A stretch of 46,152 bases of DNA, filler included, from Jimgerdemannia flammicorona (Eukaryota): assembly GCA_003990765.1 (NCBI GenBank). It is 2 parts of 2 records of this genome, joined end to end, with 100 filler letters (N's around TTAATTAATTAA, not from the genome) between each part and the next. Parts side by side here need not be neighbours in the genome. Positions count along the whole stretch, not along the records: positions 23,130 to 46,152 come from RBNJ01001169.1; 1 more part is not named here. One strand, given 5' to 3'. Numbering within the stretch: position 1 is the first letter of the stretch; every line of letters begins with the position of its first letter. The notes beneath the pieces were generated by a model. That model made no database searches. It saw only the letters and a list, made by a program, of their open reading frames with translations, and was not told where the DNA came from. Positions 1,429-40,600 of the stretch are shown piece after piece. Made by a program: the position numbers and the translations under genes.

Positions 1429-1431
1429 ACT

Positions 1432-4076: not shown

Positions 4077-4087
4077 TCCTTCCCTCC

Positions 4088-5775: not shown

Positions 5776-5799
5776 CATGATTATTGATCCTAATTGAGA

Positions 5800-8400: not shown

Positions 8401-8639
8401 GTACTTAGGTGGAAGTCCTTGGGGATCTTGGAATACATCTTGGAATTCTTCAAACAGTTCTTGAGCTTCTGTTGGAATTGGGCTACTTATAGCTTCAGTG
8501 ACTTCTTGTACTATACAGATGAAGTAGGTGTTTCCCTTTTTTTGAGAGAGTCTCTTCATTTGAATGGCAGAGATGATTTCAATTCCTTGGTAGTTGGTAC
8601 CTTCCTGGGGTATCAGAGTGATCTTTCTGTCTTCATGGG

Positions 8640-8975: not shown

Positions 8976-9289
8976 CCTCCTTCTTGATAGTGTTGAGCTC
9001 TTCATCCTCATTGTTGTTGTCCCAATTGCTGTCAGTCTTCTCAAAGTCAGTTTCTCCCCATCTTTCACAAGGAGGGTTGTTTTGTTTGGGTTCCTCAGTC
9101 TGTTGGACTTGGTTTCTTTCAGAGTTGATTTTGAAAACCTTGAAGAGGCATACATGGTATTCACTAACATATTCCATGCAGTATATTTGAATAGAATGAG
9201 GGCATCATCCACATGGTGCATAACCATCTGCAATTCTCTTATACCAGTTTTCATCATCTTTCTTCATGGTAGTGATCTTTTGACTGGGA

Positions 9290-9710
9290 GGTTTGTTGGT
9301 AGATCCAAATCCTTTCTTGTCATGATCTGTCTGGGAGAGCTTGGGGACTTCTTCAATGGTGAGATCTTGATGGATTTCTTTGATGATTGCTTGGGCAATT
9401 CTTTGGCCTGCTTTGACTTCAAATGATGTATCTCCAAAATTTTGCAAGATGATATAGATTTCACCAGTAAATCCTTGATCAACTACTCCTCCTCCTAGCC
9501 CAATGTTGAACTCTTTGGCTAGGCTGCTTTGCTCAGCAAGGCAGATGTATATTCCTTTGGGAGCTTGTATTGCAATCCCTGTTCATACTGTAGTATTGGT
9601 ACTTGGTGGAATTGTGAGGTCTTGGCTGCTGTAGAGGTCATATCCAGCATCAGTTGAGTGGGCCTTAGTGGGGATGGTAGCCTTATATCATATCTTCTAT
9701 ACTTTGATGA
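9290..9710 (-). pseudogene. dUTPase domain of A, between the gag knuckle and the protease
   Basis: AGYDL-like motif, GGVVDQGFTGEI, VKAGQRIAQAII, KKGFGSTN. Confidence 0.88.
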
Positions 9711-9779
9711 CATTCTCAGAGTTCTTCTTTCCTGGACCTTCTCCAATGACAGTAATGTTCTGGTTACTGGGTTCACCTG

Positions 9780-10749
9780 TTCTGTTCTTCTTCTCAGAGC
9801 ATCTGAATGAGATGTGTTCTGCCTTCTTGCAGTTGAAGCACAATTCCTTTTCATGGAGTTGCTTCTTTTCATCCTCAGTGAGAGGTTTGGGTTCTCTGGG
9901 ATTTCACTGGTTCCTTTGATTATTTCTTTGATTATTTCTCCTAGTAGGATTTCTTCTATCTTAGTTATCCTTCTTGTGTTCTTGATTTCATAGAGCTTGT
10001 GCAGCAAGGATTTCGTGGGCTTTTCTTTGTACTTAGGCAAAACACCATGAGTAGTGGGGGCATCCTTGGGGAAGACTCTGTTTCTTGATCTTCTGGGTGA
10101 GCCCGTCTGGTAGGGCTGCAAAAAGATGGTTGGCTCTGGTACCATTGATGGCCAAGTTATTCTCCTTGTAGGTAAGTCCAACAGTTTTGAGATAGGCATC
10201 TATTCTGGTGGTAAAGGTCTCTAGATCTTCTTCACCATTCTTGTGGAACTTCATCTGGAACAGTTTGTTCCAAGTTTCTTATATATAGACCACATTTCAG
10301 AATTTGATCAGTAGTAAGGCCTTGAGTCCTGGGCCTGCTTCATAGTCATCCCAACCTGGTCTATTATTGGTAGATACTTGTCCATTGACTTGAGGGCAGT
10401 CTTCCCAGATTACTGGGTGTTGTTCCAAGGTTCACCAGAATTTGGCTACTGTTCTAGTGAAGAATGTGGCTACTGTTTCTACTTGTGCTGCTGATGTAGC
10501 AAACAGCTGTTGAAGGGTGTTGTTCTGGTTATTTGTGAGCATTCCTGTAGGTACTCAGTTATTATTTCATTGGTTTGCTCAGTAGTCTGTATCAACTGCA
10601 TTGATGAAGTTTTCAATATCACTGTTTTTTCCACTAAATGTTAGAATTTGCAAGGTCTTAGTTAGTTTGTTCTGTTCAGCAATCTGTCCTACTATCCCTG
10701 CTAGTGCTGCTAGCTGAGAAGTCAGTGCTGCAATATTGATATCTACCAT
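9780..10749 (-). pseudogene. gag: gag of A with CCHC zinc knuckle
   Basis: TFSGKNSDIENFI, EDLETFTTRIDAYL, and CFNCKKAEHISFRC at ~9799-9840. Confidence 0.8.
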
Positions 10750-11621
10750 TGTGTTGACTATTGGTAGTGGGTCTGTTGGGGTAGATTCTCCTGAAGATTT
10801 TTCTACTTGGTGAGGTTGTGGTGCTGTATAACTTGGGGTTACTTGATTTCTGGATATCAGATCAAAAAGTCCTGTGAGAGAGGGTAAACCAAATCTCTGT
10901 ATAGATAGCTGGGTTGGTTCTGGGGTCTGATCTTCTTGACCTGTGGTTCCTTGATAAATTCCTAGGCCTGCTGTTCCTCATTGGCTATCGTCAGACTGGT
11001 AACCTGTAGAGTCTTCATCTGACTCCCTTCCCTGATGAGATAGTGTGTCCTCATACTGACTAGGTCCTTCAAAGAGAATATCAGTCTCTGGCTAGGTAGA
11101 TGGGCCTACTTCTTGTTCAGCAGTAGGGGATGGTTGGCCTGCTTGCTTGTTCTTGTACCTGGTTATAGCAGAGGCATAGTATACAACTAGCCTGTAGTAG
11201 AGGGAGGTCTTGATAGGGGTATGATGATATCTGTCAGAGGCAATCCACTTGGCAGCTACTTCTCTTGCAGCAGGGGATGTCATATAATTTAAAAAATCCT
11301 GAGTGGCTACAGCAGTAGATTCAGGGGTCCTAGTGGTTCCAATATGTCCTCAGAGGAGTTCGTAGAACCTATGGTGGCTGACAATATTCCTAAGTCCTGG
11401 GTGGTAAGTTCTAAAGGTCCGGTATAGATCTTTGTAAGCCTGGTTAATTATAAGCTAGTGAGTCCTTGGGTCTGCGGTTTCTTGATACCATCTGGTCCTA
11501 ATAGCAAGGGCTTCTCTGGCTCTGGTTTAAGGATCCACAGTTGATTCTGGGAGTTTACTTCTGTCCAAGGTTGGTCTTATTTCAACTTCAGGAGTGTGTT
11601 CTTTAGTATCTTCTTGGCTGG

Positions 11622-11637
11622 TAATCTACTACTACCA
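11622..11637 (-). promoter_or_regulatory. Primer binding site of A (tRNA-iMet-like)
   Basis: tggtagtagtag on -, 3 nt inside the 5' LTR. Same type as tggtagcagtag of element C. Confidence 0.6.
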
Positions 11638-11640
11638 AGT

Positions 11641-12417
11641 TGTAATAACTCTCACTTCTACCCCTCTCTTATCCTTTAGATAATTAGGAAAGTGGACTAT
11701 TACTTAGGGACTTAGTACACAATGTGTACCAAGAAGCCTTCAGTTGAGGAAGTGCTCACTTATAAGTAGTTGTAGCAGCAGTGCCTTCTGTTTTAAAGAT
11801 CTTTCTCTTGTGCCCTATTTCGAGGGTCTTGTTCTTTGCTGTGCACAGACTGAATTTACCTTGGAATTTAGGTTCAATGGGTTTACTTAAGTCTTTGGGG
11901 ATTTATATACTGGTCTCAGTTCTGGCAGAAGTTAGCTAGGCTTCTGGAGTTTAGTCAGAAATACTAGAGTTACTTAGATGTCATTACTAAGACTCAGGGG
12001 AATGTATGTGTGTGGGGGGAACTTGATTCTTATATCAAGGACTGAACTAAAACTGCTTTATTTTAGATAGAAACTGGGGGGTATTTATACAAGTTGGTCC
12101 ATGATTTCTGACTAAGTATGAGTGACTAATTTGGTAACTATAATGAGGTTTGTGATCACGACCTTTGTCAGGTAGTTTTTGGCAAAAAACATCTTTGTGA
12201 TCAGGACCTCAATTACTAGGCAATGATCAGCTACTGTGGCAACTATTGCTGTAGCACCAATTGTTGGGGATAAGCTGGATATCATTTTTTATATCATTTT
12301 CACATTGTTTGTCTATTTGTCATTCATTATTCATATGTCATGCTCAATCATATAATGACATCATCACTCACCGGGTCACATGATTGTTTGTTGCTCATTG
12401 TACCTTGTTCTATTACA
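11641..12417 (-). repeat. 5' LTR of chromovirus A
   Basis: Direct repeat of 3300-4076. Differences checked by eye are almost all C/T or G/A. Confidence 0.95.
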
Positions 12418-13640: not shown

Positions 13641-13964
13641 CTGTCTGATATAGAGGAATAAGAGAGTGAACAAGAGAAAGCTTATATAGTGATCACTCAG
13701 AAAAAGAAGAAGAAAGTTGGATGGATGAGTGAAAAAGAATTGTGCAAGAAGATTGCAGAAAGATATGTACTATAAGAAGTCTGCCCCTATAGAATCAAGA
13801 TATACTATATGGAGCATATCAATGATTACTACCAGTATACTGGCAAAATCAAAGAGATTTACCATCAAAGAAGACAGAAGGCCCTCAAGAAACAGGCTAA
13901 AGAGGAAAAAAAGAAGAAGGAAGATGATGAACCACCAGTCCTCCTGAAGGATGATAAAGAAGAA

Positions 13965-14385
13965 ATCAAGGTCAAAATTCAGAAGATCTATCTGAATGTA
14001 GTTCTACCAGAATATAAGTCAGAAAATGCAGCTGGAATAGACATTACTACAGTAAAAGAAACTATACTGGAGCCCCAGATAACTACCTTGCTCACAACTG
14101 GTTTGGAAATAATCATACCAAAAAACTATATTGAAATCCTCAAGATAAGAAGCAGTCTGGCTAAAAGTAAAATTACCATTGAAGGAGGAGTCATAAACTC
14201 AGACTATACTGGAGAAATCCTACTTATTATCCAAAATCACAATCCTACAATCCTATTTCCCAATCAAGAAGAAGGACTGATTGGCACAGATGTTGATCTT
14301 TCCGATTTTATAACTAAAGATCATAGAAGTTAAAAAGCTAGAGGAAATGAAAAGAGGAAGGAAAGGATTTGGATCCACTGGAAGA
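13965..14385 (+). pseudogene. dUTPase domain of B, between protease and RT
   Basis: AAGIDI, RSSLA, GGVINSDYTGEI, RGRKGFGSTG. Confidence 0.92.
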
Positions 14386-14569
14386 GGAGTATTTGCCAGC
14401 ACCAAGATCACTAAACTAAAGCATAGAAAGGAGAAAACTACAAACAAGTATAGCTACACCATCAGGAATGAGTTTCCACTCAAAAAGGAACTCAAGAAGA
14501 TACTCTATAAATTTGAGGATGTTCTTGCCACAGATTTCAAAGATATCAAAGGAAAAACCCCATACTACC

Positions 14570-15870
14570 ATTATGAGATAAATACTGGAGACACTGAACC
14601 AATTTACCAGAAGGCAAGATCTGTCCTACCAGTCTATCAGGAATGGCTCAGAGAAGAAATTAAGCAGATGAAAGAAGCCAGTATTATCAAAGAAGCCAGT
14701 AGCCCCTGGTCTTCACCAGTAATGCTAGTACTGAAAAAAGGAAGCAAGCCTGGAGAATTCACCCCAAGACTCTGCATTGACTATAGAAAGCTCAATATAG
14801 TTACTAAGAAGGATCACCAATCACTGCCCCTCATCAATGACATCCTTATAACTCTGGGAGATGAAGCACAGTACTACAGCACCTTTGATCTATACTCAGG
14901 ATTTCACCAAATCAGACTCACAGAAGCAGCAAGTGAAAAGTCAGCCTTCATAACCTCAGATAGAACATATGTCTACCTGTGAATACTATTCTGAATGTAT
15001 AATGTACCAGTAAGTTTCTAGTGAATGATGAACAAAATCTTCCACTATGATATAAGAAGATAGATAATGATTTATGTTGATGATATAATTATCTACAACT
15101 ATACACCAGAAGAACATCTGCAGCATATCTAGTAGATAATGGAAAGACTGAGAAAGTATGGTCTATACATCAAGCTCAAGAAGTACAAGTTTGCAGAAAT
15201 TGAGATCTCCTATCTTGGCCATATTATCAACTGAGATAGAATACACACTGATCCCCTCAAGATATAAGCAGTAGCAATATACCCAAGACCCACTATAGTT
15301 ACTGAAGCTCAAGCCTTCATAGGACTCACCTCATATTACTGAAGATTTATTAGAGGATTCTCTAATATTGCAGGTCCAATCTATGAACTCACAAGAAGAA
15401 TACCAAGTTTCAATAGAACTAGTAGACAGCAATAAGTATTTGATGAGCTCAAGGTCAGACTGACCCAAGTACTCATCCTTAGAAGACCAGACTGAACCCA
15501 AGAATTCATCTTTCAGATAGATGCAAGTACATAAGGACTAGGAGCAGTCCTAGCTCAAAAGAAAGACAAAGTAGAATATATCATTGCATACCTCAGCCAT
15601 GGAACCTAAGGAGCTGAAAAAGAATACAAATCATATAAGTTAGAGTATCTTACAGTCATCTGGGCTGTAGAAAAGTTCTACTACTATCTGGCCAGAAGAT
15701 ACTTTATTATTCAAATAGATCACTCAGCTCTTATCTAACTACTGACTACTAGATAACCCAAGAGAATCTATACCAGATGGATCATGAAGTTGCAAGCCTA
15801 TGATGTAACCATCATGCACTACCCAGGAAGAACTAATATCAATATAGATACTCTCTTATGGACATCCTGA
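14570..15870 (+). pseudogene. Reverse transcriptase and RNase H of B
   Basis: SSPWSSPVMLV, RLCIDYRKLN, FDLYSGFHQI, YVDD, YLGH, DAST*GLGAVLAQ. Confidence 0.95.
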
Positions 15871-17474: not shown

Positions 17475-19390
17475 ATGGATGGCAATGATCAAACTGGTGA
17501 GCATACTAGCCAGGGGGGTGATAGTGCCTTTGGCTGACAGCAGGTGGAGAGGAGGGGAGATGGTTTGGAAATACTGGGGGCCTCAATGGCTAGCCAAGGC
17601 TCTGGTGGTGGAGGGAGGGGCAGGCTGAGGCAGAGAGGAGGGGAGAGGTCGACCTTCGCTGACAAGGTCAGAATGGGAAAGATGACTGCAGGCCTTGATG
17701 GTTGGCTGGGCCTGGGGACAGCATCGACAGCGGCTGCTGGGGGACAGGGAGGTATACCCAGGAGAGTCTCAGGTAGCAGGGGAGGAGCAGGAGTAGGGGC
17801 TGGAGATGTGACTACTGATGGAGCTGTGACTGGGGATCTGGCAAAAAATCCAGATGTGACGGCAGCTGGCAATTTGGGACTGGGAGTGGGCATGAGGCCC
17901 AGGGACCTGGCTGATGGGTGACGGGTATGGTATTGGCCCCGTTACTCAAGAAGTTGAGGTCAGAATTCGCAGTCATAATGTGCTTCCAGGGCTTGGCGGT
18001 AATGGTGAGGATGATTTTGGGGCTTGTGGCACAGGAGGCTAAGGGGGCAGCATCGGTGAAGTTCTTGAGGGGAAAGGAAGGGGTTGAGGTGGGGTTTGAG
18101 GAGGAAGATGCCTTGTTGGCAGTCATGGAGAAGGGGGTGATGGTTGGCAAAGTTGTGGTCCCTATGGCCTAGTGCATGTGCTGGGACCCCCGAGTGGTGC
18201 AGTTGATGGTGTTGGACCTCCCGACTGTATCAAAGGAAAGGACCAGGGAGTTGGTGGTAGAGGCGGTCAAGGAGTATGGTGAGATTGTGGATGTTGGGTT
18301 CAAGGTCTGGGAGGGCATGGAGCTTAGAACTGGCGATGTCGATGTCAGGGTGAGGCTGGCTGGGAAGGAGAATATGGAGAAGTCAAGGGACTGGCCAGTA
18401 GTGCTGTGGTGGGGACCAGTGGAGTGTAAGGTCACTAGGGTGAAGGGGACTCAGGAGGAGGAGGAGGACCTGTTGGAGGCTCTGGAGGATCTGGAAGAGG
18501 CAGTGGCAAGGAGGAGATTGGCCTGGAAGGAGTTTGAGGCCAGAATGGTGGTGGGGGAGGTGGATGGGAAGAGGGTCTGGATGGAGAAGGGGGCCTGGGA
18601 GAAGATGCAGGGGAGGAGGATCCAGAAGGAGCTGTTGGCAAAGTTGGGCAGGGGTGGGGTGGGTGGAAGCTCAGGGGAGAGAGTTGCAGAGTCACAGGAG
18701 AGCACTTGGGCTGTGGGGGGAGAGATGGCCCAGGGTGGGGCTCAGATTGGAGTGGAGGAGAGGAGGGAGGGCAATTTGGAGGCAGATGCCAAAATGGGTG
18801 AGGGTGTGCACTCTCAGTATAGTATTCCGGAGGGGGCAGAGGGGGAGGAGGAGCTGATGGATGTGCCGGATAAGGAGTGGGATGAGTCGGTGAGAAGAAG
18901 CACACTGGTGGACCCTGAGGTGGATGGAGGACAAATCACTCAAGGGGCGGTGGAGGCGGTGGATGAGGAGAAGTGGATGTGGAAGACCTTAGAAGGAGTA
19001 GTGGCTGAAGAGCTGGGGGGTGAGGACTTCAGGGTGTTGGAGGAGAAGTATTGGGAGGAGATCCTATGGGGGGAGGAGGTGCCGAGAAAGATGAGGAATG
19101 AGATTCTAGCAGTCCTCCTGGAGTCAGTTGAATATCAAGTTGATGATCAGTGAGAGGAGAAACTTAGGAGGATTGCAAGTGATAGAGCAATTTTCTTATG
19201 GAATTTGAGGAAGGGACTAGAGAAGTGGCATGCTGTCTGCTTAGATTACCGGGTGGATATGGAGGAGGTGGACAGGGTGGAATGTCAGGAAATCTTGGGG
19301 GCTCTGGATGCTCAGGATAATGCAGAGGGTGACTTGGAAGCTGAGCGGTGCTTGGATCTGGCAGGAGATGAGATGAGTATGGAATTATAG
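17475..19390 (+). pseudogene. LINE D ORF1 (putative RRM-type nucleic-acid-binding protein, acidic/coiled C-terminus)
   Basis: Chained ORFs 17544, 17918, 18176, 19205 with one frameshift. YGEIVDV...LRTGDVDVRVRL resembles the Tx1/L1 ORF1 RRM region. Homologues in three other copies. Confidence 0.75.
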
Positions 19391-19421
19391 GTTGAGGCCT
19401 CTATTACAACATTTCTTCAAT

Positions 19422-22400
19422 ATGAACAGTATAACTAGAATTTTCTCATTGAACGTTAATGGGCTATGGGGGTCAGCTAGGAGGAAGTATTTATTTGGTT
19501 GGCTTAAGGGACTGGATGCAGACCTCTTCTTACTGCAGGATGTTCATTATGAGGCAGATGTGGACTTATAGGATTGGACTAAGGAATGGGGGGGTGCAGC
19601 AGTTTGGAGGGGGAAAGTGGGTATTCTTGTTCAGAAAAGGATGGGGGACATTGGAAACATTGGACATTGGGGGTCTCAGGTAGTGTGGGGAGTGTGGAAG
19701 AGGCCTGGATGGGGCCTGCTGATAGTTGGGTCCTGTTACTGCCCAGCAGAGAGAGGGGAGAGGGTGGAATGGATCCATGGACTGAAAGAGGCTGGTGTGT
19801 TGGGAGAAGTTGGGTTAGACTGTATGGGGGGTGACTTCAATATGGTTCGGGATAAGGAGTTGGACAGAACAGATGGAGGGAGAGGTGTGCGGGGTGAAAG
19901 TGGTGGGTTGGATGACTGGTTGGAGATGGAGAAGTTGTGTTCGCTAGTAAACTCAGGAAGATTTTTTTGGACTGAGTGGCGGATGTATATCCACTAGGCA
20001 GCAGGACTGGGCTCCAGGATTAATTGGATTCTAATGGTAGAGTGTTGGAGAGCAGATGTCTGGTCAGCGCTAGAAGTCATATGGTGTCCGTAGTCTGATC
20101 ACTGGGGGCTGCTTGGAGGGGGGAAGTTTGGGGGAAATGTGGATGGGCCTGGACATTGGTGACTAAATTCTTCCTTGTTGGAGGATAGGGTATTGTGGGA
20201 GGGATGGGAATCAGAGGTGGTTGGAAGTATCAGCAGGTGGCGGGAACATGGACTGGAGATTGGGGACTGCTGGAGAAGGCTGAAGGCGAAGGCTCAGGAG
20301 TATTGGAGGGAAGCAGAGAAAGGAAAGTGTACCCAGTGAAGGCAGCGGGTGCTGTAGGCCTCGCAGTGTCTGGCAGCACTCATAGAGAGATGGGCAGGTG
20401 TGCTGGAGGATGGGGCCATGGCTGATTGGTATATTGCGAGGATCCGGCTGGAGGTGAAGGAGCTCAAAGGGGTGCTATACAGGGAGGAGGAGGAGCAGTT
20501 GCAGGGAATGGTGGCCCACCTGCAGTGGCAGGGGCTTGAGGAGGGGGAGAGGCCTACCAGGTTCTTGTCATGGTTGTTACAAGCACGATATATTAGGCAG
20601 TGGTGGGAGGGAGTTTTGGATGAAAATGGTGAGCTGGTGGTGGAGACTCTGGTGATTCTGGGCCTACTGTGAACCCAGTGGGAGAATCTTTGGAGTGAGG
20701 AGGATGGGGGATTGGATGCCCTAGATATTGAAAGACAGCTGGGGGATTGGCACCCAGATCCTGCAATGGGACTTGGGGCATTGGGGGACCTGGTGAGTGG
20801 CAAGGAGATTTGCAGGGTTGTGGCCTCAACGAGTAAGGGGATGACTCCGGGAGAGGATGGGCTCTCTTGGGATTTTTGGCAGAAGATGGCTGGGGTGGGT
20901 GAGGTACTAGAGGAAATGACTGCTATGTATGATGGAGTTCTTCGGTCTGGTGTCTGGATTGGGGGACAGCATTTAGGGCTAGTTTCCTTACTCTTTAAGA
21001 ACAATGGTAGGCAAGAGGACTGGAGGAACTGGCAGCCAATTATGCTTCTCGATATGGACCACAAATTGGTAATGAAAATCTTGGTGATGAGGTTGCAAGG
21101 AATCGCTCAGCAGGTACTTGGTGTGGAGTAACATGGGTTTGTTGGTGGTCGGTTGATTCGAGATGGGACAGCCTGGGTTCATGGAGTGATTGAAGGTGCC
21201 CGGGCGACAGAGGTGGATGGTAGATTGGTGTTTCTAGACCAAGAGAAGACTTATGATAGAGTGCAGAGAATATGGCTGGAGGGAGTGCTGAAGCAGATTG
21301 GTACCCCCTCGGGGGTCTGAAGATTATTAATCAGCCTCTTGGAGGACAGTCAGACAGCATTGGTCATCAATGGCCACAGGGGGATGACCTTTCCCCTGGG
21401 ACGTGGGGTGCCACAAGGGGACCCCTTGTCACCCATATTGTATGCTCTTTCCCTGGAGCTGCTACTGGACAGGATTCAGTGTAAGATTGGGGGTTTGGAC
21501 ATTTTAGGGGTAAACTGGAAGGTGGGGGCCTTTGCAGATGATATGGTGGTCAGACTGGGCTCCTTGGGAGATGTGGGAGAGTTACAGAGGACTGTGGAAT
21601 GGTATGAGTGGGGTTCTGGTGCTAAACTTAACTGGCACAAATACGAGACACTGGTGCTGGGTGCTGGAATTGTTGGAGGTGATATTATTGGGATGGTGGT
21701 ACCAGTGGGTGAACAAGTGTACTACTTGGGGATCTACTTCTCAGTGTTCAGATCTCTTCTTCTCCAGGCATGGTGGGACCATAAACTTCTGGAGTGGAGT
21801 AATGTTCTGCTGTGATGGGGAGGCCAGCATATGTCCCTTGCTGGAAGGGTGATGGTGTTGAATGTGTATTGGATGCCGAAGCTGTGGTATGTTGGATATC
21901 ACTTGGATTTCCCAACCTGAGTGGTCAAGGAGTTGCTGAAGATGGTGAGGTCATGGATCTGGGGAGGGCGGTGAAGCCAGGTTGGTTGGGAGGTACTTAC
22001 ACTGCCCTTGGAAAGAGGTGGGCTGGGCCTAGTGGACTTTGCTAAGCAGCTTCTATGTCTGAGAGCCTGGTGGCTGCAAAGGGCGAGTGAGCTCAGGGGG
22101 CAGGAGTGGGTGCCGCTCATGCAGAGGTTGTGGGAGGTTCGGTACTCCCCATGTGGTAGCTCTGGGGACCTGCTTGCAATGGTGGCCATAGAAGGGAGCA
22201 GGAGGATGCAATATATGGGCTTTTGGTGGGGGGTGGTGGATGGTGCTAAGAAGATTGGACTTTGGTGGCGAGGTGATGAAGCCGAGAAGGATTGGGGACC
22301 GTGGATGTGGTGGTGGGACAGGCTTCTATTGGGGGGTGTTCTGGTGGAGGATTTTCAGCTTGGCGAGGGCCTGGAGTGTCTGCAAGGACTAGGTAGAGAC

Positions 22401-23028
22401 CTGTGGCCAGAAGCCTGGCAGAGGGTTGGAATTGGGGAGGAGTGGGATTGGAATGGACTCTGGCTTTAGAGCAAATGAGTGTGGCAGTGGCTGCCCCCCA
22501 AGTTCTGGGTAGTATGGTGGCGGGTCTTATGGCGGAATGTGATGTTGAACTATCGGTCTGGACATTTGGTGGACGGTGGGATATTTGAGTGCAAGGATTG
22601 TTTCAATGTTGGTCAAGAGAGAGGAGTGGTACAAACACCTGAACATTGGCTTGGTGAATGCGAGGTTTTGGGGGAGTTTTGGAGATGTATTATAGACAGG
22701 GTAGGGCTGGATGCCATGGAGGGGGAGGGAGGGAGGAGATGGGGAGAGCTCTGCCAGTAACTGGTGGGGGGAGTGGGGGATGAATAGCAGACCCTTAGTT
22801 GGGCTTTAGCTATGTGGGTTGGGTTGGCTGGGCATTGGGTCTATGTATTTGAGGAAGGACACCAGGTCAGGGTTGGTGACAAGGTGACCCAGTGGGAGTG
22901 GTTGCTGTTGGACATTTTGAATGGCTGGTGGAGGGGTTGGGGGATGGGTGGGGGGACCCGCAGGGGTCTGGTGCAGTGTATCACCCAGAAGAGTGGTGGG
23001 AGGGTTCGGGTAGTAGGTAATTGGATAG
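19422..23028 (+). pseudogene. LINE D ORF2 (APE endonuclease, RT, C-terminal zinc finger)
   Basis: SLNVNG, GGDFN, SDH, PGEDG, GVPQGDPLSPILY, AFADD, CKDC...HWLGEC. Confidence 0.93.
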
Positions 23029-23029
23029 T

Positions 23030-23129
23030 NNNNNNNNNNNNNNNNNNNNNNNNNNNNNNNNNNNNNNNNNNNNTTAATTAATTAANNNNNNNNNNNNNNN
23101 NNNNNNNNNNNNNNNNNNNNNNNNNNNNN
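23030..23129. other. Assembly gap / artificial contig linker
   Basis: 44 N + TTAATTAATTAA (stops in all six frames) + 44 N = 100 bp. Confidence 0.95.
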
Positions 23130-23615
23130 CCTGCTTCATTTTTCTCAGTGAACAGCATCGGCCACGAGGGGGCACGCGCCCTAGCCGAGTCTTTGAAGCA
23201 GAACACGACCTTGACCTCGCTGCATCTCAGAGGTATGTCAGAACTGAACTGACTGAACTGTGTGAAGCAATGGGGGGTGCGGCTGCGCAATGGGAATCAA
23301 GCTTACGATGTGTGCGTGTTCGCTCATCCCCCCTCTCCTCCTCCTGCTTCATTTTTCTCAGTGAACAGCATCGGCCACGAGGGGGCACGCGCCCTAGCCG
23401 AGTCTTTGAAGCAGAACACGACCTTGACCTCGCTGCATCTCTATGGTATGTCAGAACTGAACTGACTGAACTGTGTGAAGCAATGGGGGGTGCGGCTGCG
23501 CAATGGGAATCAAGCTTACGATGTGTGCGTGTTCGCTCATCCCCCCTCTCCTCCTCCTGCTTCAATTTTCTCAGCGAACAGCATCGGCGACGAGGGGGCA
23601 CGTGCCCTAGCTGAG
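23130..23615 (+). repeat. 213-bp exon+intron tandem repeat (about 2.3 copies visible)
   Basis: Units start at 23130, 23343 and 23556 and are near-identical. Confidence 0.95.
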
Positions 23616-23642
23616 TTTAAGAGTGTGGTTGTTGGATGGTAA
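23149..23642 (+). CDS. 3' end of a host leucine-rich-repeat gene (RNI-like/NLRC3-type 28-aa LRRs); exons 23149-23232, 23362-23445, 23575-23642
   Basis: 84-nt phase-1 exons encoding NSIGHEGARALAESLKQNTTLTSLHL, GT...AG 129-nt introns with a pyrimidine tract, terminal exon ending GW-TAA. CpG intact. Confidence 0.88.
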
Positions 23643-24554
23643 CTCAATCATTTGTCCTTCTATACTTTATTCGGATTTGTCATCCACGTTTGCAAACTCG
23701 GAGTATCGTTATATACTTTAGGGAGCGTTATAGCTTAGAAATACAACGGAAAGTTCTGGAATTTCTGTTACACATGACTTCTTCCATTCTATTTATATAA
23801 GGGGTTTTCTGGATCATGAAGTCGTGTGACAATTTCCCGCAGGAAATCTAATAATAAAATCCACTCGGCTGTTTGTTTACCTCACATTACACAGACCCTT
23901 ATAGAGTTTCTAAGGGAACTCTTCTAACAAGGTTCAGACGCTGTGCGATTCAAGATATCCGAATGTGGCATATTTTCTTAATAAACTCTACCAATGGATA
24001 GTTATCGTGTTCTGGCTTTGCCTGACATTTTTGAGGAATTGGCCTCATTTCCATTTTATTAATGGCGTCCGCTTGGAATGTTATCTTAGGGGACGCTGGT
24101 TCTCGGAGTGCGATTACTTGGTGGTCAGTGGCAAGCTTCGCTCAGTTCACGCGTTGCGTCATTGGGATATAATTGTCATTTTCCATAATTGCCCTTTGCA
24201 CATATTTTATATTCTCCTTTGGAAGGAAAACAAAGAATCTTCCAGTCTGTAAAACCGATTTAAACGATCCTACTCAAAAAGAAATATTGATCGCCGACAA
24301 AACTAATAGCTGTTTAATATTTGGTTTTTCTCAAGAGCGGCACTTTATTGATAATACAAACAATGCGCTTTTATGCATAAAGGAGAGATGTGGTGGGCAG
24401 TGCGAGTGTTGAGTGCGGAATGCTTTTACAGTTAGAGAACGACACCTTTGCTGACCCGCATGTGAAACATTAGACCTTTCGAGAAAAATGTGTTGCCTGC
24501 GAATGAGGACCACATGGTACTTTATTTCATTTTCTTTGCATCCTTATTGTTCAG

Positions 24555-25510: not shown

Positions 25511-27119
25511 AAAAGAGGATATTTTGTAATAAAATTATATATCAAAAAATCTTTGAAGAAAGATACAAATAACAATCATACATATGACCTAATAAAGATA
25601 TTATAAACAAATAATATATAGAATAAGTGTAAAAATTTCATGATTATATTTTAGTCTTAGTACTTTTTCATATCTTTTTACTAGTTTTTTCTTGTCTTTT
25701 CTTAAATATTCTACTATATTCCAGTATCTTCTAAATGTCTAAAAATCTTCACTTAGTACTAAAATACTACTAGAACATTCTTGTCTTTTTTAGGTACCAA
25801 GTATTGTATCTAGCTAGTCATAGAACCTTTTGAAACTTTGTAGAATTCTATAGTCATCTTTGCTGAGAATCTATTTCTTGGCTTCTCTCTTCTTTTTTAA
25901 GATCTTTCTTGAATAAAGCTCAGAATATTTTCTTCCAGAATTTCTTCAAGAATACTTAAACCTATAAGTATCTCTTTGAGCTACTTTAGGCCCAAGAATT
26001 ACTAGTCTTAGCCACTTCTTCTTAAAGAAACTAAAACTGTTATACTTGGTAGCAGTAGTGTCATTATATTTTGCCTTATTAAGAAATCTTCACAAATTCA
26101 GAAATCAGTCATAACTAGTTATACAAGTCCAAAATAAGCTATACTACAGAATCAGTCTACCATCCAGATCCCTCTTCTATAGAAGAAATAGATAATACAA
26201 AACTACAAGTCAATCTGGAGGATATAATTACCTCTATGGTCTATTAGATCTAATAACTTCAAGTATAACTAGAATACCAGAAAACAAGTACTATAGCCAT
26301 ATTATATTCTGCTACTATACTAGTCAGCTTCAAGCCACTCAAGCCAAATACCTTTAATGGTCACCAAGAAGGACTGATCACAGATGTATAGACCTTCTAG
26401 TTGGACCAATACTTCAAACTTACAAGAATGAAAGAAAACATATAAGTCCAATTTGCTATCATACTTCTCTGAGGAAATATAACTATTTGGTAAGCAACTA
26501 TATTATAACTACTACTTCTTATTCAAATACAAGAATCCAAGATTGGAAATCTTTCAAGAAGGCCCTTTACTAGCAGTTTAAGTTTACTAATATATACTAC
26601 TAAGCTAGTCAGAGATAAGCTAGTGAATACTAAGCAACTCAAGTCTATATAAAGTTACAATATACAATTTCTGTCAATTTTACTCAAAATACCAGCAACA
26701 GCTAAAGATAAAAAGATAGACTACTATATCTGAGATCTGAAAGAAAACACACAAGTCAAGATCAAGCTAGAAGAGCCACAGACCCTCAATGAAGCTATGA
26801 GAATTACTGATAGATTTGATATCATTACCTTTGATAACTACTTCAAATCAGAATACTATAAAAAGAACTATTTTGAGAACTATCACAAGAACTAATTCAA
26901 AGCAGTTGGCCCAGCATCAATGGACTTAGATACTATGAATAAGAAGAATACCAAGCTTACCTCTAAATAAAAGACTACTTTCAGAAATCTGGAGCTTATT
27001 TCTTCTATTGCTAAATAGGATATATTACAACCAAATATTCTAAGAAGACCAGCAAACCCTCAAGACCAGTCACCATATTGTCTAAAGATATACCTATCAA
27101 CACCACTCTCAGTAAATCT

Positions 27120-31280: not shown

Positions 31281-34181
31281 ACTTATAAGAAAGAGCTACT
31301 GGCAATAATATATATACTAGACCACTGGTGATACTATCTAAAAGATGTTGAGTTTGATGTCATTACTGATTATCAATCTCTTAAGTAAATTAACACCTAA
31401 CCTATCCTGTTATATCTATAAGCCAAATAGAGTCTAAAGTTTCAAACCTTCAATCTGATGATTATCTATAAGCCTGACAAGATACTTATAGTACCAGATG
31501 CCTTAACCAGATACTCAGACCTCACCATAATTATACAAGTCACCTTGGAATTAGAATTTTTAGACCAAATCAGACAAGCTTATAAAGAAGATACTATTAC
31601 CACTAGAGTTTTCTTAAATGAGCTCAAGGATATATACATATACCATCAAGGACAATATGATCTATTATTAAGATAAATTCTATCTATCTGACAATATGAA
31701 TCTACATTATAGGATACTATAAGAACATCATAACTCCCTACTCACTAGTTATCTTAAAATTGAAAAAATAATTAAAAATATCCTGCATCACTACTATTGG
31801 CCAAGTATGGTCAAGAAAATCAAGAACTATATTACTAGCTATGACCTCCATCAGTACAACAAGTCTACTAACCAAGCACCAGCTAGTTTACTACAACTAC
31901 TATCAATTTTAACTAAGAAATTCAAATAAGTTATAATAGATTTTATAACTCAACTACTATAAACTTAATCTGGTACTGATGCTATTATTATATTTATTGA
32001 CTATCTGACTAAAACTATGATTACCAAACTAACTACTACCAATGCTACTATACCTGATATTGCAAGAATCTTCTTCAAGTCCATCTTTTATTACTATCAC
32101 CTACTATAAGTAATTGTCAATAATTATGACCCCAAGTTTATCAGCCACTTCTGGTAAATTCTCTTTAAGACTCTGAAAACCCAATTGGCTATATCTACTA
32201 TCTTATACCTACAAATTAATGGACAAACCAAGTATATAAACAGAACTCTAGAACAAATACTCAGAAACTATATTTCTTATAAGCAAGATGACTGAGACTA
32301 TTACTTAACTTATATAGAATTTATATATAATAATACCATCCAATCATCTATCAGTCTTTTATCTTTTTGGCTACTCCATAGTTAAGATTCTAAGATCTCT
32401 ATAAGTTTAGTCTCTTTTAAGAAAAACAGTTAAATATAAGTTTCTACCACCAAGACCCTTATAGACAAAATAGATGAACTACTCAAGATTACTACTATGA
32501 ATCTCTAGAAGACTCAATAGCATCAAGCTAAGTATACTAATAAGAAATACCATTATATCACCTATACTATTAGTGATCAAGTCCTACTATCTATGGGAGC
32601 CTCAAGATATAATCTCAAGTCAACCATTTATCAAATAAGTTCCAACTTAAGTATATTAGACTCTTTGAGATTACTAAATAAGTCTCTATATCCTCCTACC
32701 ATCTCAAACTACCTGAAACCATAAGAGTATCCAGTCTTTTATATATTATACCTCAAGATCTAAAACTAGTTACTACTCTACTTTGGTCAAATTTTCAAGC
32801 CATCTGTCTCTATAATTATTGAGGATTATATTAAGTATAAAGTTGAGTAAATCCTTGACAAATGAATCTACTACTATTGTCTGAAATATCTGATCAAGTG
32901 AGTGGGCTATCCTGAATATGATACTATCTAAGAACTACTAGTTAACCTCAAGAACTCTCAAGATCTAGTCTAAGACTTTGAAGCAAAATAATTATTCAAT
33001 CTCTATAGTAACTTTTTTAGATTATAAATAATCTACAGTAATAACTAGTACCTTATATATGTATCAGAAGTTTACTTTGGGATACTGGAGCTAGCAAAAT
33101 ATCTAGTAAATAAGAAGTTTACTAAAATGAAGCTACTAGCTGGATTTGAACTCCTCCTAGTTAGTTAGTCTGATAATAGGCCCTCTGTCCTATATAAGAA
33201 TAACTAGTCTCTGCAAATGTGCCAATATCAGTTTGAGAAATTTTGATTAAGTATATTTAGTCTTATATTATCTAAAAACTCAATGAGAATATTAGTTCTT
33301 AAAAAGAGAGGAATGTAATAATTTCACAGTCATATTTTAGTCTTAGTACTTTTTTGTATCTTTTTGCTAGTCTTTTCTTATCTTTTCTAAAATATTCTAC
33401 TATATTCCAGTATCTTCTGAATATCTAGAAATCTTTTCTTAGTACTAAGATACTACTAAAACATTCTTGTCTTTTCTTGTAACTAAGTATCTTATCTTAG
33501 CTAGTTATAGAACCTTTTGAAACATTATAGAATTCTATTAGTCATCTTTGCTGAGAATCTATTTTTTGGCTTTACTCTTCTTTTCTAAGATTCTTCCCTT
33601 AGATTATATATAAATATTGTTATTCTCTACTTAAATAAAGCTCAGAATATTTACTCCCAGAATTCCTTTAAGAATACTTAAATCTACAAGTATTTCTTTG
33701 AGCTACTTTAGGCCTACTAGAATTACTAGTCTTAGCTGCTTCCTCTTAAACAAACTAGAACTATTACAAAAAGTAATAAAGTGATAATATGAACAACTCT
33801 CTGAATATTTGAAATGATAGTGATATAGTATTACTTAGTTAAATTATATAATAAATAGATCATTTGTTTCAAAAGTAAATAGTTTGTCCTAAGTCCAAAT
33901 ATTCAGTTTATTCTAATAATGTATTTACTTACAAAATAAACAAAGCATTTATGTATATATCAAATTGATTACACATTCTTAGTCAAAACTTGTGAACCAT
34001 TACTTAGCCAGTATATATATATAAATACTTCAGTAATTATAGTTAAAATCAATTATAGTATATTCCAAAACTGAATTAATATTTTATTAAATTTTATATT
34101 TTAATTATTTAAATAAAAATACTCTATATAAATATACTTTATATTATAGTATATTATAGTTTTATATTTGAGATATTTAAA

Positions 34182-34619
34182 AATATTAAATTTATTATTT
34201 TTAAATTTTTATTTTATCTTTAAAAAAAATTCTTATTTGTTTAGTTTTAGAATAAAATTATTTATAAATATTCTTTATTTAATAGACAGATAATAAAATG
34301 AGATATATATTTAAAACTTATTATAGTTATTCTTTTAACATTTCTCTATAATTTTATATAATTTATTTTATCTTTTAAAAAAATAATAAAAAATCATTTT
34401 TATTATATATAAATATATAATATATTATTAATATACTGAATTCAAATATTAAAATAATGATATTTTATTAAAAAAAAAGACTATTTACGTATACTTTCTA
34501 CTTATAATAAATTATAATTTATTTATTAAATAGATTAGTTACAGTTTAAGATTATATAAAATATTATATATATTATTAAAATATATACAAGAATAATAGA
34601 AGAATAAATAGATACTGTA
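34182..34619 (+). repeat. Second copy of the AT-rich foldback arm
   Basis: Direct repeat of 1-471, ending at atagatactgta. May extend further left. Confidence 0.85.
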
Positions 34620-37600
34620 CTCAACTTCTTTTGCTTAAATCACTCAGAGTAAGCTAAGCTACATAGATATCTTTTTATGAAAAACAATATATGTTTTCAA
34701 GTTTTTACTTTACCTATATAGGTATACTAGATATGACAAGAGTCTATCTATAATTAATAATAAGTTTTATTGAAATCTGTTAAGTTTTGGTACTATAGAG
34801 AGTCAAAGTTTCTCAGGCTCTAAGTGCTTGGAGAGGAGAAGACCTAGCTTGGACCTCCCTAAGAGTTTTGCTGCTATTGCTAGAGCTGGAGGTATAGTGG
34901 AGAGGACTGATGATCAGGAGTAGGCTACTGGAGCAGATGGGTGATATACTGTAGTGGGGGACAGGAGGGCAGCCTCTAGACCTACAGTTGGTGGGCAGGG
35001 AGAGCATAGTATTGACAGGGGGAAAAGTCAGATGATGGGTCTAGTGATAGGTCAGAGGCCTATTCAGGATCAGGGGTCTGGTAGTGGGACTACTGAGACT
35101 AGTTTTACTAAAGCTGGGTCAGTGGCTGGTAATGGATCTACTAGTGGTACAGTGGTGGCTAAAGAGGTAGTGGTTGGTGTTTCAGGAGACAAGGACAGGA
35201 TGCCCTTGGTAGCTAGAACTGATAAACTGGTGGTACATTTTTTTTTTTTTTTTTTTTTTATATGTAGTCATATAGACTTCTACTTTATTACCAAATCATC
35301 TATATTATACTAATATAGATATACTCCTCTCTCAATCCTATGAGGAACCTCTCCTTCTATCTCTCCATTCCTCTAAAATACTACCAACACCCCTACCACC
35401 TCAATTCTCTCTTGCTCTACTGATAAATCATCTTCACCAGTGACCTCCAAAGACCTCCTCTAGTGTCTCACCCCTGCTACCAACTATTCAAAAGGTCTAC
35501 CATCAGCCACTCTCACCTTCTACTTTACACCTCAAGCATTAGCTACTGATTACTCTTAAATATATATATATATAGTCAATATCTGGTAAGTCCAATCCAA
35601 ATAGCCAAATACCCACCCAATAGTTAATTACTCTTCATCCAACCCTCCTACCAGCTGCCTCCAAAGGTCACCCCACCTCCTCTCCACCATTGGCCCTGGT
35701 GGTCATACTCCCAGCTACTCCTTAATAGCTCTCCAAAAGTCACCCATCATCTCACACTCTCCTAGCCAATGTTTAGACATCTGTACTGCTCTTCTCTTCT
35801 ATCTAATGTTCAGACATTCCTCACACTCCAGGGCACCCCCTTCTACCAAGTAATCTAACTGATAGTTCAACATTATATTACACTACAGGAGTCTCTATTG
35901 TATCACCAAAATCTTGGGGGAAATCCACTGTGCTGCCTGCTTACTCTATGATCAAATACCATTCCAGTCTCACTCTTTGCTAATTCCCACTCTCTGCTAT
36001 ATCTTTTGTCACAAATCTCTCCTGTACTCTCAAAGATACTCTATGCTATCTTCTAAACAAAAGTCATCTACTAGTGTCCCCCCTAACAGAAGATAGTCCC
36101 ACTTCTATATCTGGGGTCTCCAGTCCTTCTCTCTCTTATCTCCCTACTAACAGAGGCCAATTCAGTGAGCCCCATCAACTACTCCCCACCAGAATCTCTT
36201 AAAGTATATCCTCTGGCTCCTCTTCAATGCTATCAGAGAGAGCAGGTTCCCAGAAGTACTATGCGGAGAGAACAATGTCTCTCATAACTTCTGCATGAGA
36301 GGAACCCACTCCTGGTCCCTCAACTCACTAGCTCACTTCAGCCACCATACCCTCAAGCAATGCAGATACTTGGTAAAGTCCACCAGACCCAGTCCTCCCA
36401 AGTCCACTGATAGGGTTATCACCTCTCAGCCAATATAACTCTGTCACCCTGCCCATATCTAGATTCTGGCCATCTTTAACAATCTCTTGACCACCAATAC
36501 CAGAAAGTTCAAGTAGTACTCCAGATACCATAGCTTAGGCAACCAGTATACATTAAACACTATCACTCTCTAGCCAGAGATATATATTGACCACCCTACT
36601 TTAGAAGAGTGCTCTCTCACTTAACTAGCCACCACTCTCACTATATATAGGACAATAAGGAACCATATACTGAGAAGTAGATCTCCAGGTAACAAACTAT
36701 CTCTCCAGCTGGTACAACTGTCCCAATCACATCTCTACCTACTATCTCTTCTCCCAACACCAAAGTCTCACACTTACATATGTCAGTTGAGCTTAGCATC
36801 AGAACATCTCTCATACCATTCCACTACTCTCTTCAGTACTGCTATATCCTCCACCAATCCCAACACTACCACTATATTATTGATAAAGGCCACCACCTTC
36901 CAATTAATCCTCAAAATGTCCAACTCCCCAACCTTGTGTCTAATTCTATTTAGTAAAGGCTCCAGAGATAGTATATATAGTATTGGCAACAGCAGATCTC
37001 CTTGTAGCACTCTTCTGCCTAGTGGGAAAGAAACCCCCTGATGTCTATTCACTAGAATTACTGCCCTACTCTCTTCTAGTAGACTGACCAAGGCTCATCA
37101 AAACTCTGGGGAGACTCCTATATACTTCCACACCCCCTCCAACCACACTTACTGGACTCTGTTATAAGTCTTCTCCTGGACCAGAAATACCAACTAACTA
37201 TCTATCCTTGCAGTCTGAGCTTCTTCAATAATACCATACATCCAAGCCATTCTATCTCTAATCAAATGGCCCCCTATGAAGCTCCTCTGCTCTGCCCCCA
37301 GCACTTGCTGAGCTACTTCTTACAGCCTAGTGACCAATATCTTCTTAACCAGCTTATAATCTATATTCAGTAGCATAATCAGCCACCAGTTCTTCTACTT
37401 CTCTCTTCTCTCCTTGTCCTTATACAGCAGAGCTATAAGATATAGATACTGCCCTCTAATCTACTCTCCAGAGCTAATGACTCTATCACACATCCCTATT
37501 ATCTCTTCCATAATCAACTTAACACCTACTATCTTCTTTCAAAAATTCCACATTAAGCCATTCTCCCCTGGTGCTGTCCCTAAGCTCATCTTTGCCAGTA

Positions 37601-40600
37601 CCCAACAAATCTCCTCCTCTTGGATAGGAGTGCCAAGATCACTTAAGCCTCCTGCCAGATCCAGGTACCAGTCCTCCAGATGTCTTTCAATGTCCAGTAC
37701 CTCCTTCCCTCCTTCTTTCTCACTCTACAACTATTTCCACCAAGTACTCAACTGGCCCAAAATCTCTGGGATCCCAACCACCATCTCTCCTCTCTCATCT
37801 AAAACTCCCTTCCACCTCTGCCTCACCCTTCACACCTGCAGAAGTTTTGACAGAAACTTTGTAGGCCTCTTCATCTCCTCCAAGCCCCCACCTCAGCTGG
37901 GTTACCATGCCCTTCACCTGTAGGTCTTTTTCCTGCCTCAGCAATCTCTTCAGCTTCTCTACCTCCAGCCTGACCTACTGGATCCTCCAATCCCCCTCCT
38001 TGCCATCACTCAGCATATCAGTCTATGATATCAACAATCTCTCTAGCCTCTGAGAGGCCCACTTGATATGCCTCCTCCTCTGAGCACCCCACAACCTCCC
38101 TACCTCTCTCCAGTATCCTTGTACCTCTGATTTCAAATACCACTAATGATCCCCAATCTCCAGCCCCTTTACTCTTCAGCTACATATATATCCTAGAACT
38201 AATATTCACCACCCAAGCATTCCAGAGAGAGGGCTCTCCCAGCAATAAAGTATTTAGATACTAATATCCAGATCCCTCCCCACTTCCCCCCTTCTGTCTC
38301 TCAATAGACTCCAATGATCCGACCATAAGCACCAAACCATCTCCAAAGATCTCCAGACATCCTCTCTCCAATATTTATCAGTTAACATCCAGTCAATCCT
38401 CAAGTCCAGCCATGCTACCCAGTGAGTATAGACTCTGCAATTCCTTCATCTAAGCCTCCCAGTATCTATCAGAGATCTCAGACATTTGACCTCCTCCCAG
38501 ACTTCCATATCCCTACTCCTACCAACTATCTCTCTCTCTCTCTATCAGTTCTGTCTAACTGCCTATCATATATCATGTTAAAGTCCCCACCTAAACAGTC
38601 AATTCCTATAACTACCAACTCACCTAACTCTCATAGTTCTCTTATCTATTCCACCTGCTCTCCCCTTTCCACTGGGCAATAATACAACTTAACAGTCAAG
38701 AGACTCCAGCCTGGCCTCTTCCACACTCTCTACACCACCCTGCTCTCCCAATGTCCAATGTCCCCAATGTCTCCCTTACTCTTTCAAACTAATATATATA
38801 CTCAACTCTGCTATATAGCCACCCCTCTCTATTCCTTTATCCAGTTCAGAGTATCTAAGTCCCCATTACATCTAATATCCTATAGTAAGAACAGATCAGT
38901 GTCCAGCCCCTTCAGCCAACAAAAGATATTCCTGCACCTCACTACTCCCTGTAACCTATTGATATTTAAAGAGAAGATTTTAGTTATACTGTTCATATTG
39001 AATAATGTTTTTGTGAAGAACAATCACTTACTCTACAATTTCATACTCACTATATCACTAGTAACATCCAGATTCCTTTCTGTCTCAAGCTCATTCACCA
39101 CTCCTTGCTGAGCATCTAATACCTCCAAGATCTCCTGACAGTCCTCCCCATCTACTGCCTCCATATTAGCCTGATACTCCTTGCACACTATCTGCCAATT
39201 TTGTCAACCCCTTCTTAGGGCTCTACAGATAGAAAGCATAGTTATTTGCAATTACCAAGAGTGCCACCTCTCTGTTGTCATCTATCTGATACTCTTCAGC
39301 TTCTAGCAGGGCTGCCATTATCTTATTCTGGAGTTTTCACACCATCTCCTCATCTCTTAGAATTTCCCCCCAGTGTCTCTTACTAATCAAATAGAAGTCT
39401 ACCTCCCCTAGCTCCTCAGTCACAATATTTATCAGTGTTTTCCACAGCTACTGCTCCTCATCAATAGTCTCCCCCACTTTCTGGATTATCTCCTTCTCCC
39501 CATCAACCTGCCCTCCATCAGTATTCATCTATACAGACTCATCTCAGTCCTTCTCCAGCATATCTTGCAGCTCATCAACTTCTCCTTCCCCTGAAGGCAC
39601 ACCATACTAAACTCACTCCTCCTCTACTATCACTTCATCTATAGTCATTATGCTCTGTCCTGAGTCACCACCCTCTCCCAGGGTCACCCTCTCCCAGGGT
39701 CACCACTAGTACTGCTCTATTATCCTCTGCCCAAGCACTCACTCTTAACCCTACACCTTTAGCAGTGTTCTCTCCCTCAACTCTCTCTCCCAATTTTGCC
39801 AACAGGTCTTTCTGAATTCGCCTCTCTTGTGCTCTTTCCCAGGCAGCCCAGTCCAGACACACTCTCTTGCCATTTACAATCTCTACTACCATCTTGGCTT
39901 CAAACTCCTTCTAAGCCAACCTCCTCCTCTCAACTGCTCCAACCAGGTCCTCCAATGCCTCTAGTAAGTCCTTCTTCTCCTCTGGTGTCTCCTTCACCCT
40001 CAAGACCTTATACTCCACTGGTTCCCAATTGAGTACTGCTGGCCAGTCCCTCTCTTTGCCAGTATTCTCCTTGCCTACTAGCTGTACTCTGACATTCACA
40101 TCTTCTATCCTTAACTCCATGCCTTCTTTGACCTAAAATCCAATATCTGCAATATCCTCAAACTCTTTGATAACATTTATAATCAATTTCCTGACCATCT
40201 CATTCATCACTGTAGGTACATCTACTATTATCAACTGTATCACTTGGGGGTTCCAGCATAAGCACTGAGCCATAGAGATCACCACCTCCTCCACTATTAC
40301 TTCTTACTTCATTGTCCTCAGCAGTAAATCTTTCTCTTCAAAGTTCACCTCCACCCCTTCCAGTTCTTTCAAAAACTTTACTGAGGCTGCTCCCTTCACC
40401 TCCTAGATCAGAAGTTTCAGAATCATCTTCACTGTAACTACTAAGCCCAAGAAATACAATGTAATAGTAAAATCTGACATTGATTTCTTAAATAATAGTG
40501 CTGTCACCAGGCCCAATATACCATCATCCAGGTCCCCAGGCCTTGTGTCTCCCCTCAGCCCAGATCTACTATCAGTCATCACATCTGGATTTTTTTTCAG

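Follow-up and report, generated by a model that had tools for sequence, protein, structure and literature searches.

At the start of a contig from Jimgerdemannia flammicorona, leucine-rich repeats (LRRs) are encoded one per exon, in a tandem array that had been read, in a first-pass annotation, as part of a diversifying, immune-like receptor. This raises the question of which type of gene the array belongs to, and how much of that reading the sequence can carry. We consider it likely that the stretch represents the 3′ end of a protein-coding gene with a solenoid of ribonuclease-inhibitor-type (RI-type; Pfam LRR_6) LRRs, which is built from one-repeat exon modules. The fragment is too short to show an immune receptor or diversifying evolution.

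Setting and exon–intron anatomy of the array

The window (the whole stretch of DNA that was analysed, 46,152 nucleotides) consists of two contigs joined by an artificial spacer, and features on either side of the spacer need not be genomic neighbours. The array begins at position 23130, the first base of the second contig, directly after the spacer. The contig thus breaks inside the array, as had been claimed. The features of this region are as follows (X1 to X15 are sequencing runs, see below).

23030..23129, no strand: artificial spacer N44-TTAATTAATTAA-N44, with stops in all six frames
23130..23148, + strand: intron 3′ end with pyrimidine tract and acceptor AG, matching the next two intron ends save for 1 base in unit 3
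23149..23232, + strand: LRR exon 1, 84 nt, with 27 whole codons (P0001) flanked by split codons, which contribute 2 bases at its start and 1 at its end; ends CTC AGA G
23233..23361, + strand: complete intron between exons 1 and 2, 129 nt, GTATGT...CAG
23362..23445, + strand: LRR exon 2, 84 nt (P0002), equal to exon 1 except for codon TAT instead of AGA; this exon type is spliced onward in X5 record 21 and X4 record 18
23446..23574, + strand: intron, 129 nt, one base off intron 1 near the acceptor (T>A at 23565); X1 record 8 spans 23489-23596 with 0 other letters
23575..23642, + strand: last coding exon with a truncated LRR (P0003), which leaves the repeat consensus after ...ALAE; TAA at 23640-23642
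23643..23870, + strand: probable 3′ untranslated region with AATAAA at 23853-23858; X1/X2 contigs (records 15, 16) lie on 23650-23868 with 90-95% likeness

TRF reported a repeat at 23130-23616 (period 213, 2.3 copies, 97% matches, score 918), and repeat self-comparison aligned 23130-23342 with 23343-23555 at 99%. Each 213-bp unit corresponds to an 84-bp exon and a 129-bp GT..AG intron. Counted from the contig start, a unit comprises the last 19 intron bases (pyrimidine tract with a CAG end), the 84-nt exon, and the first 110 bases of the next intron; the introns of 129 nt run GTATGT...CAG. One exon encodes one 28-residue RI-type repeat, with the junction codon split into 1 + 2 bases. All three exons are open and have intact splice sites, and exon 3 continues after ...ALAE for eight further codons until its TAA is reached. 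A six-frame LRR motif scan of the window detected motifs in the two complete exons only, and found no extra or inactivated LRR exons in introns or on the opposite strand. We take this exon–intron anatomy and the stop in the third exon as established.

According to the gene model that we favour, the C-terminal domain would be an RI-type LRR solenoid, its module being one 84-bp exon (a 28-residue repeat) together with one short intron. Within the beta-strand motif LxLxx|N, each intron splits a codon between its first and second bases. All internal exons are therefore symmetric and frame-preserving. The concave beta-sheet face may act as the binding surface, as in RI-type LRRs, and the signalling or acting part presumably resides upstream, off the contig. 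NACHT, ROC, and kinase domains were not found on the contig that carries the LRRs. The array starts at the first contig base, and the 5′ part of the gene, with any NACHT/NB-ARC or ROC-COR region that it may encode, lies off the contig.

Splicing in environmental RNA and reliability of the assembly

The window was compared with the contigs of runs X1, X2, X4, and X5, out of 15 matching runs (word shares of at most 0.19). At the predicted splice sites, contigs from environmental RNA carry one exon fused to the next, with no intron between them. In X4 record 17 (soil metatranscriptome, 112 nt), letters 1-76 lie on 23151-23226 and letters 77-112 on an exon start, the 2 mismatches being exactly as expected for ...AGAG|TGAAC. 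In X5 record 21 (root metatranscriptome, 114 nt), 82 letters from a TAT-type exon are followed by 31 letters from a TG/CAC-type exon start, with 0 mismatches in that part. We take this splicing as established as well. Together with the 84-nt exons and their AG/GT borders, the contigs that join exon to exon bear out the claim of one LRR per exon.

The unit order of X5 record 21 (TAx-type, then TG/CAC-type) is absent from the window and comes from further units or from a paralogue. The existence of additional units had been anticipated, and is probable given this order and the position of the contig start within the array. Joints that skip 343-369 bases were considered as cases of alternative splicing and were rejected: their sides cover only 25-28 letters, other letters lie between them, and paralogous units are an equally possible source. 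No contigs from X1, X2, X4, or X5 were found on 23890-24329, and these data provide no evidence for a transcript end.

The array might be an assembly artefact, either a mis-resolved repeat, in which alleles or paralogues were strung together as if in tandem, or the collapsed form of a longer array, so that the 2.3 copies would not represent the real locus. This would fit with an array that extends from the very first contig base, with units 1 and 2 that differ at one codon only, and with the depth in X1 at position 23229, most of which reads G, not A (4679/6952). Hundreds of near-identical exon copies could mislead an assembler. However, contigs from an independent run cover the border from exon 1 into intron 1 (X1 record 3, 97 nt, 2 other letters) and that from intron 2 into exon 3 (X1 record 8, 108 nt, 0 other letters), and true tandem arrays of such modules occur in metagenomic relatives (see below). 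These contigs back the two borders, not the whole two-unit order. Together with the arrays of the relatives, they leave no doubt that the units exist; what is uncertain is how many there are and in which order. We consider an artefact unlikely, with the caveat that units 1 and 2, which are nearly identical, lie at the contig end, and it is there that the count and order of units deserve the least trust.

Differences between the units

Units 1 and 2 are identical at 210/213 positions. The 3 differences are adjacent and constitute one codon, AGA/TAT (R/Y), which is the last x of LxLxxN. Because the chance that three independent changes fall on three adjacent bases is 1.3e-4 (exact), the triple is most simply counted as one mutational or conversion event (a multi-base mutation or a micro-conversion). 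The two complete units are probably the product of a tandem duplication that copied the 213-bp exon+intron module very recently; alternatively, gene conversion may have homogenised them. A single event of three bases, located in the surface codon with the highest variability, would then be all that separates them.

Unit 3 shows 5 differences to unit 2 in the 61 bases before divergence: 1 intron base, the second base of the split junction codon, which is G|TG (Val) elsewhere and G|CG (Ala) in unit 3, an H>D change (CAC>GAC), and the synonymous changes CGC>CGT and GCC>GCT. From unit offset 62 on, unit 3 is non-homologous and then runs to the stop. The differences had been claimed to occur at the LxLxxN positions, with one additional H/D change, and this is what the alignments contain: R/Y and V/A are on xx of LxLxxN, and CAC/GAC is present. 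Near-identity of introns and synonymous sites, which had also been stated, applies to units 1 and 2 (the introns being identical) but not to unit 3, which has 2 synonymous changes and 1 intron change. Over the 13 whole codons shared by units 2 and 3, there are 2 synonymous differences (Sd) on 9.7 synonymous sites and 1 nonsynonymous difference (Nd) on 29.3 nonsynonymous sites.

Both complete exons end in G, so that, within this set of three units, only the downstream exon decides which residue the split codon encodes. Contrary to the proposal that new residues are created in this way, none would result from shuffling these units.

Repeat type and related proteins

RI-type LRRs follow the consensus LxxLxLxxNxIGxxGaxxLaxxLxxNxxL. 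This is recognisable in the translated exons (P0001-P0003), which have the pattern N-x-I-G-x-E-G-A-x-A-L-A-E-x-L-K-x-N-x-T-L-T-x-L-x-L-x, and the repeat length of 28 codons, the split codon included, fits the class with 28-29 residues. LRR_6 is the sole Pfam family that was matched. Single exons score 19.1, 17.6, and 15.4 bits and stay under the cut-off of 23.4 because the LRR_6 model straddles the exon junction; relatives are far over the cut-off (102.6 bits for P0010). A PDB sequence search resulted in 38 distinct sequences with E ≤ 1, RI-type LRR proteins among them. The list mixes immune and plainly non-immune proteins, including the axonemal MOP84A (8.6e-11), NOD2 (5irm; 2e-8), DRC5, LRRC34, RanGAP1, and ribonuclease inhibitor.

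For the word-indexed protein search, the query was the read-through ORF of a metagenomic relative (L001, see below), not a window exon. Among its 37 matches, NACHT is present in 8/37 and kinase in 3/37, and many are LRR-only. The top match is a Death-NACHT-LRR protein (P0004); a MYND-LRR protein from Jimgerdemannia flammicorona (P0010) and a kinase-LRR protein from Endogone sp. (P0018) are also matched.

An exhaustive HMMER search with the 30-aa window translation returned 13,528 representative proteins with E ≤ 1e-3, 266 of them at E ≤ 1e-30. Among the best 150 of these 13,528 library proteins, the best single unit is at most 21/27 identical to the window exon, so that none of them is a close guide. 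By mean identity to the window exon, P0010 ranks first of the best 150 (69%). P0010 and P0018 resemble the array in their repeat consensus and in the short C-terminal cap that follows a last partial repeat; they differ in that their best single unit is only 19/27 identical to the window exon. A domain scan covered 38 of the top 40 proteins by best single-unit identity among the best 150 (P0010 and P0007 were left out). LRR_6 was found in 38/38, a kinase in 4/38, and NACHT in 1/38; caspase, SWIM, XK-related, aspartyl protease, and Arm/Sel1 domains occur in 1/38 each. As 28/38 of these nearest proteins are LRR-only and just the one has NACHT, the repeat type does not predict an immune receptor.

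Relatives in metagenomes

A near-exact 36-letter core pattern had 0 matches in the metagenome collection. The degenerate pattern A-L-A-E-x-L-K-Q-N-T-T-L-T retrieved 5 loci, of which L002 duplicates L001; conservation of this pattern in one unit per relative locus is by ascertainment, being the search pattern. A further 13 exons of 84 nt come from the loci L001, L003, L004, and L005; their codons are split in the same phase, and the introns between adjacent exons have 63-82 nt. The relatives' introns are thus short, whereas the window introns carry a long pyrimidine tract. We take the occurrence of this gene design in the four metagenomic relatives as established.

In L005 and L004, as in the window, the last LRR exon is truncated and runs into a stop, and several library proteins end with a cap like that of window exon 3. 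Because of these parallels, exon 3 can be regarded as a normal last coding exon rather than a breakpoint.

Intron pairs within the relatives' arrays are up to 94% identical (59/63 in L001, 45/48 in L005), which indicates that whole modules duplicate. In L001:1426-2437, the introns alternate between two types, with 1909-1971 and 2212-2274 being identical at 59/63. This alternation suggests a duplication of two-unit modules. The 84-nt LRR exon at L001:1665-1748 has intact splice sites and an in-frame TAG where other units have CAG; it is an inactivated or skipped exon. No NACHT domain was found in the 138-aa ORF that starts the L001 gene.

Variation along the repeat and selection

Among 14 genomic units, position 28, the codon before the junction, shows the highest entropy (2.84 bits). 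Next are positions 24 (2.61 bits), 3 (2.50 bits), 6 (2.41 bits), and 10 (2.41 bits). Scaffold positions have an entropy near zero, partly owing to the search pattern. The ranking is unchanged when 13 units of P0010 and P0018 are added. With more units, variation is thus not spread uniformly, and position 28 remains at the top. The claim that variation is focused at the junction is correct insofar as this codon is the most variable, but positions 3, 6, 10, and 24 are nearly as variable. Variation at the x positions corresponds to the generic pattern of any LRR family.

Nei-Gojobori counts for 22 within-locus pairs from the relatives resulted in pN/pS values of 0.90 for the x positions and 0.43 for the scaffold, with pS at ~0.4-0.55 and thus saturated. 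With the few events of the window and the saturated pS of the relatives, these counts reveal no nonsynonymous excess and do not demonstrate diversifying selection; the comparison of units 2 and 3 looks purifying.

These data bear on the proposal of a diversifying immune-type receptor, in which selection, with exon duplication, shuffling, or skipping, yields new residues on the concave face, as in the Ectocarpus ROCO genes or in expanded NLR families. The sole difference between units 1 and 2 is a nonsynonymous triple change that hits the most variable position, whereas the synonymous sites and 129 bases of intron are identical. However, one event is not a trend; the comparison of units 2 and 3 shows 2 synonymous versus 1 nonsynonymous change in whole codons; and the pN/pS of the relatives' x positions is not >1. 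The exon family in the organism of X1/X2 is very large, with variable xx codons between conserved cores, and would be in line with such a receptor, as would the inactivated exon in L001 (1665-1748), of a kind described for Ectocarpus (PMC3341825). Exon-skipped forms at this locus, though, are not distinguishable from paralogues among the contigs of X1, X2, X4, and X5.

The same division is seen for domains. NACHT occurs in 8 of the 37 matches to the L001 ORF, including the Death-NACHT-LRR protein at the top. However, no nucleotide-binding or signalling domain is visible on the contig, 28 of the 38 scanned library proteins are LRR-only (kinase 4, NACHT 1), the best library unit (21/27) is no close guide, and axonemes, RanGAP, and tropomodulin make use of RI-type LRRs as well. 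We thus do not adopt the label “immune-like receptor”, and consider it unlikely that the array belongs to a receptor of this type.

Comparison with known systems

The 3′ end of an RI-type LRR gene, which is our preferred reading, resembles well-described genes. According to Hoss et al. (2019, PMC6642158), a single 28-aa LRR per exon is the rule in most NOD and NLRC genes, and the exon border has a constant place in the beta-sheet. The array from the window has, likewise, a 28-residue RI-type LRR per short, frame-preserving exon with the border inside the beta-strand, a likeness at the level of the overall design. In both cases, the modular design permits exon gain, loss, and skipping. The differences are that NACHT is not visible in the window, the upstream part of the gene being off the contig, and that the host, to judge from its transposons and its best matches, is not a vertebrate. 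Literature searches found no article on 84 bp LRR exons of NLRC3 and no relevant one on leucine-rich proteins of Jimgerdemannia.

The first-pass annotation had drawn a parallel to the Ectocarpus ROCO genes. Their LRR exons (type I) have 72 nt / 24 aa, belong to the plant-specific LRR class, and are assigned to phase 0 by the authors (Zambounis et al. 2012, PMC3341825; see also PMC11378527). In principle, both systems share one LRR per exon and module shuffling, with tandem exon+intron modules and variable positions on the concave face. Inactivated LRR exons within arrays are also shared, here in the relative L001 only. The window exons, by contrast, are of the RI type with a split codon (84 nt / 28 aa), no ROC-COR is visible on the contig, and there are no antisense or intronic LRR copies within the window. 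The parallel thus holds for modularity but not for exon size and class, and is an analogy only.

Non-immune RI-type proteins (ribonuclease inhibitor, RanGAP1, DRC5/TCTE1, LRRC34, tropomodulin) have the same repeat class, and the same horseshoe with a binding face made up by the x positions is to be expected here. They differ in being conserved single genes, whereas the family of the window exon comprises hundreds of near-identical contigs from a single organism.

The array is one more example of a known gene design, namely, RI-type LRR arrays of symmetric one-repeat exons which grow by tandem module duplication. The exon design of NOD/NLRC genes, known from vertebrates, is thus not confined to them: an unrelated eukaryote rich in transposons has it too, as do several relatives from environmental samples.

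Size of the exon family

The only feature that possibly goes beyond the ordinary is how large the exon family is within a single organism. Contigs with at least 90% likeness to the stretch number 1034/351,861 in X1 and 693/222,996 in X2 (both from one organism; that they are RNA is only a guess), so that ~0.3% of all contigs in X1/X2 resemble a single LRR exon at this level. The summed depth per 40-base bin, which is not a copy number, is ~270,000-295,000 in the exon core (23170-23209), ~45,000-50,000 in the adjoining bins, and ~150-3,800 in the introns. The letters between the conserved cores spell many differing xx codon pairs in contigs from X1, X2, X4, and X5. At the family level, the helix-coding core appears to be conserved in its nucleotide sequence and the junction codons appear to vary. 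The gene from the window would be a member of this large family of near-identical LRR exons within one organism, with the same conserved core and variable strand/junction codons.

RNA contigs that match the LRR exons come from soil and root samples, and the nearest named relatives are Endogonales fungi. Runs X3 and X6-X15 are soil and permafrost metagenomes with shares of 0.05-0.09 and are not counted as habitat evidence.

A much wider interpretation takes the fragment as one visible part of a repertoire of RI-type LRR exons that is very large, was amplified recently, consists of near-identical members, and may reach thousands of units. With a core that is near-invariant in DNA and two hypervariable junction codons, this would be a germline cassette system for binding surfaces, operating via module duplication, conversion, and possibly alternative exon use. 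We consider this improbable. If it were true and the host fungal, an LRR-based receptor repertoire would exist in a kingdom whose NLRs are described as using mainly repeats of the WD40/TPR type (PMC10197012). Should the ~0.3% of contigs stand for genomic units in the thousands, with junction codons that are hypervariable, this organism would lend itself well to studies of LRR repertoire diversification outside animals, plants, and brown algae.

Transposon-rich surroundings

Apart from the array, both contigs consist of retroelements: gypsy-type elements (with integrase, RNase H, and dUTPase) and G-rich, LINE-like elements with RVT_1. A dead fragment is thus a further alternative, in which the 3′ remnant of an LRR gene has been stranded among retrotransposons, outside any functional gene. 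This could be concluded from the retroelement content of the rest of both contigs (matches to rve, RT_RNaseH_2, dUTPase, and RVT_1; LTR pairs), from the LTR-like repeat at a distance of ~2 kb downstream (25628-26042), and from the truncation of the third repeat. Yet the three exons are open with intact splice sites, relatives also normally have a C-terminus in which the last repeat is truncated, and X1/X2 contigs lie on exon 3 and on the 3′ flank. We consider it unlikely that the array is such a remnant, and retain the 3′ end of an RI-type LRR gene as the preferred reading.

The gypsy-type LTR retrotransposon is located at 3300-11940 (− strand) and carries RT, RNase H, integrase, and a dUTPase domain. 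It is bounded by 300-nt direct repeats which are 95% identical (3300-3599 and 11641-11940). A second dUTPase+RT fragment is found at 13776-14982 (+ strand). With the gypsy RT as query, only generic matches were obtained, with ~40-60% identity and mostly from plants. Searches against Rfam and for tRNAs in the window gave no matches.

The LINE-like retroelement is present in three copies: 17500-23029 (+ strand), 35000-41000 (− strand), and 41000-46152 (+ strand). The GC skew of their coding strand is +0.4 to +0.58, an unusually strong strand bias, and their ORFs are W- and G-rich. The RVT_1 match is at 21321-21815; the LINE RT query matched generic RT clusters (Atlas). A 326-aa ORF of this element (18173-19153) belongs to no Pfam family and has only 2 relatives among 5.8 billion proteins.

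A pair of direct repeats, 25628-26042 and 33314-33766, is 86-93% identical and ~7.7 kb apart; these are probably the LTRs of another element, 2 kb downstream of the end of the LRR gene. A very AT-rich block is found on both contigs (1-620 and 34182-34620) with 83-98% identity, and the first kilobase has 17.5% GC.
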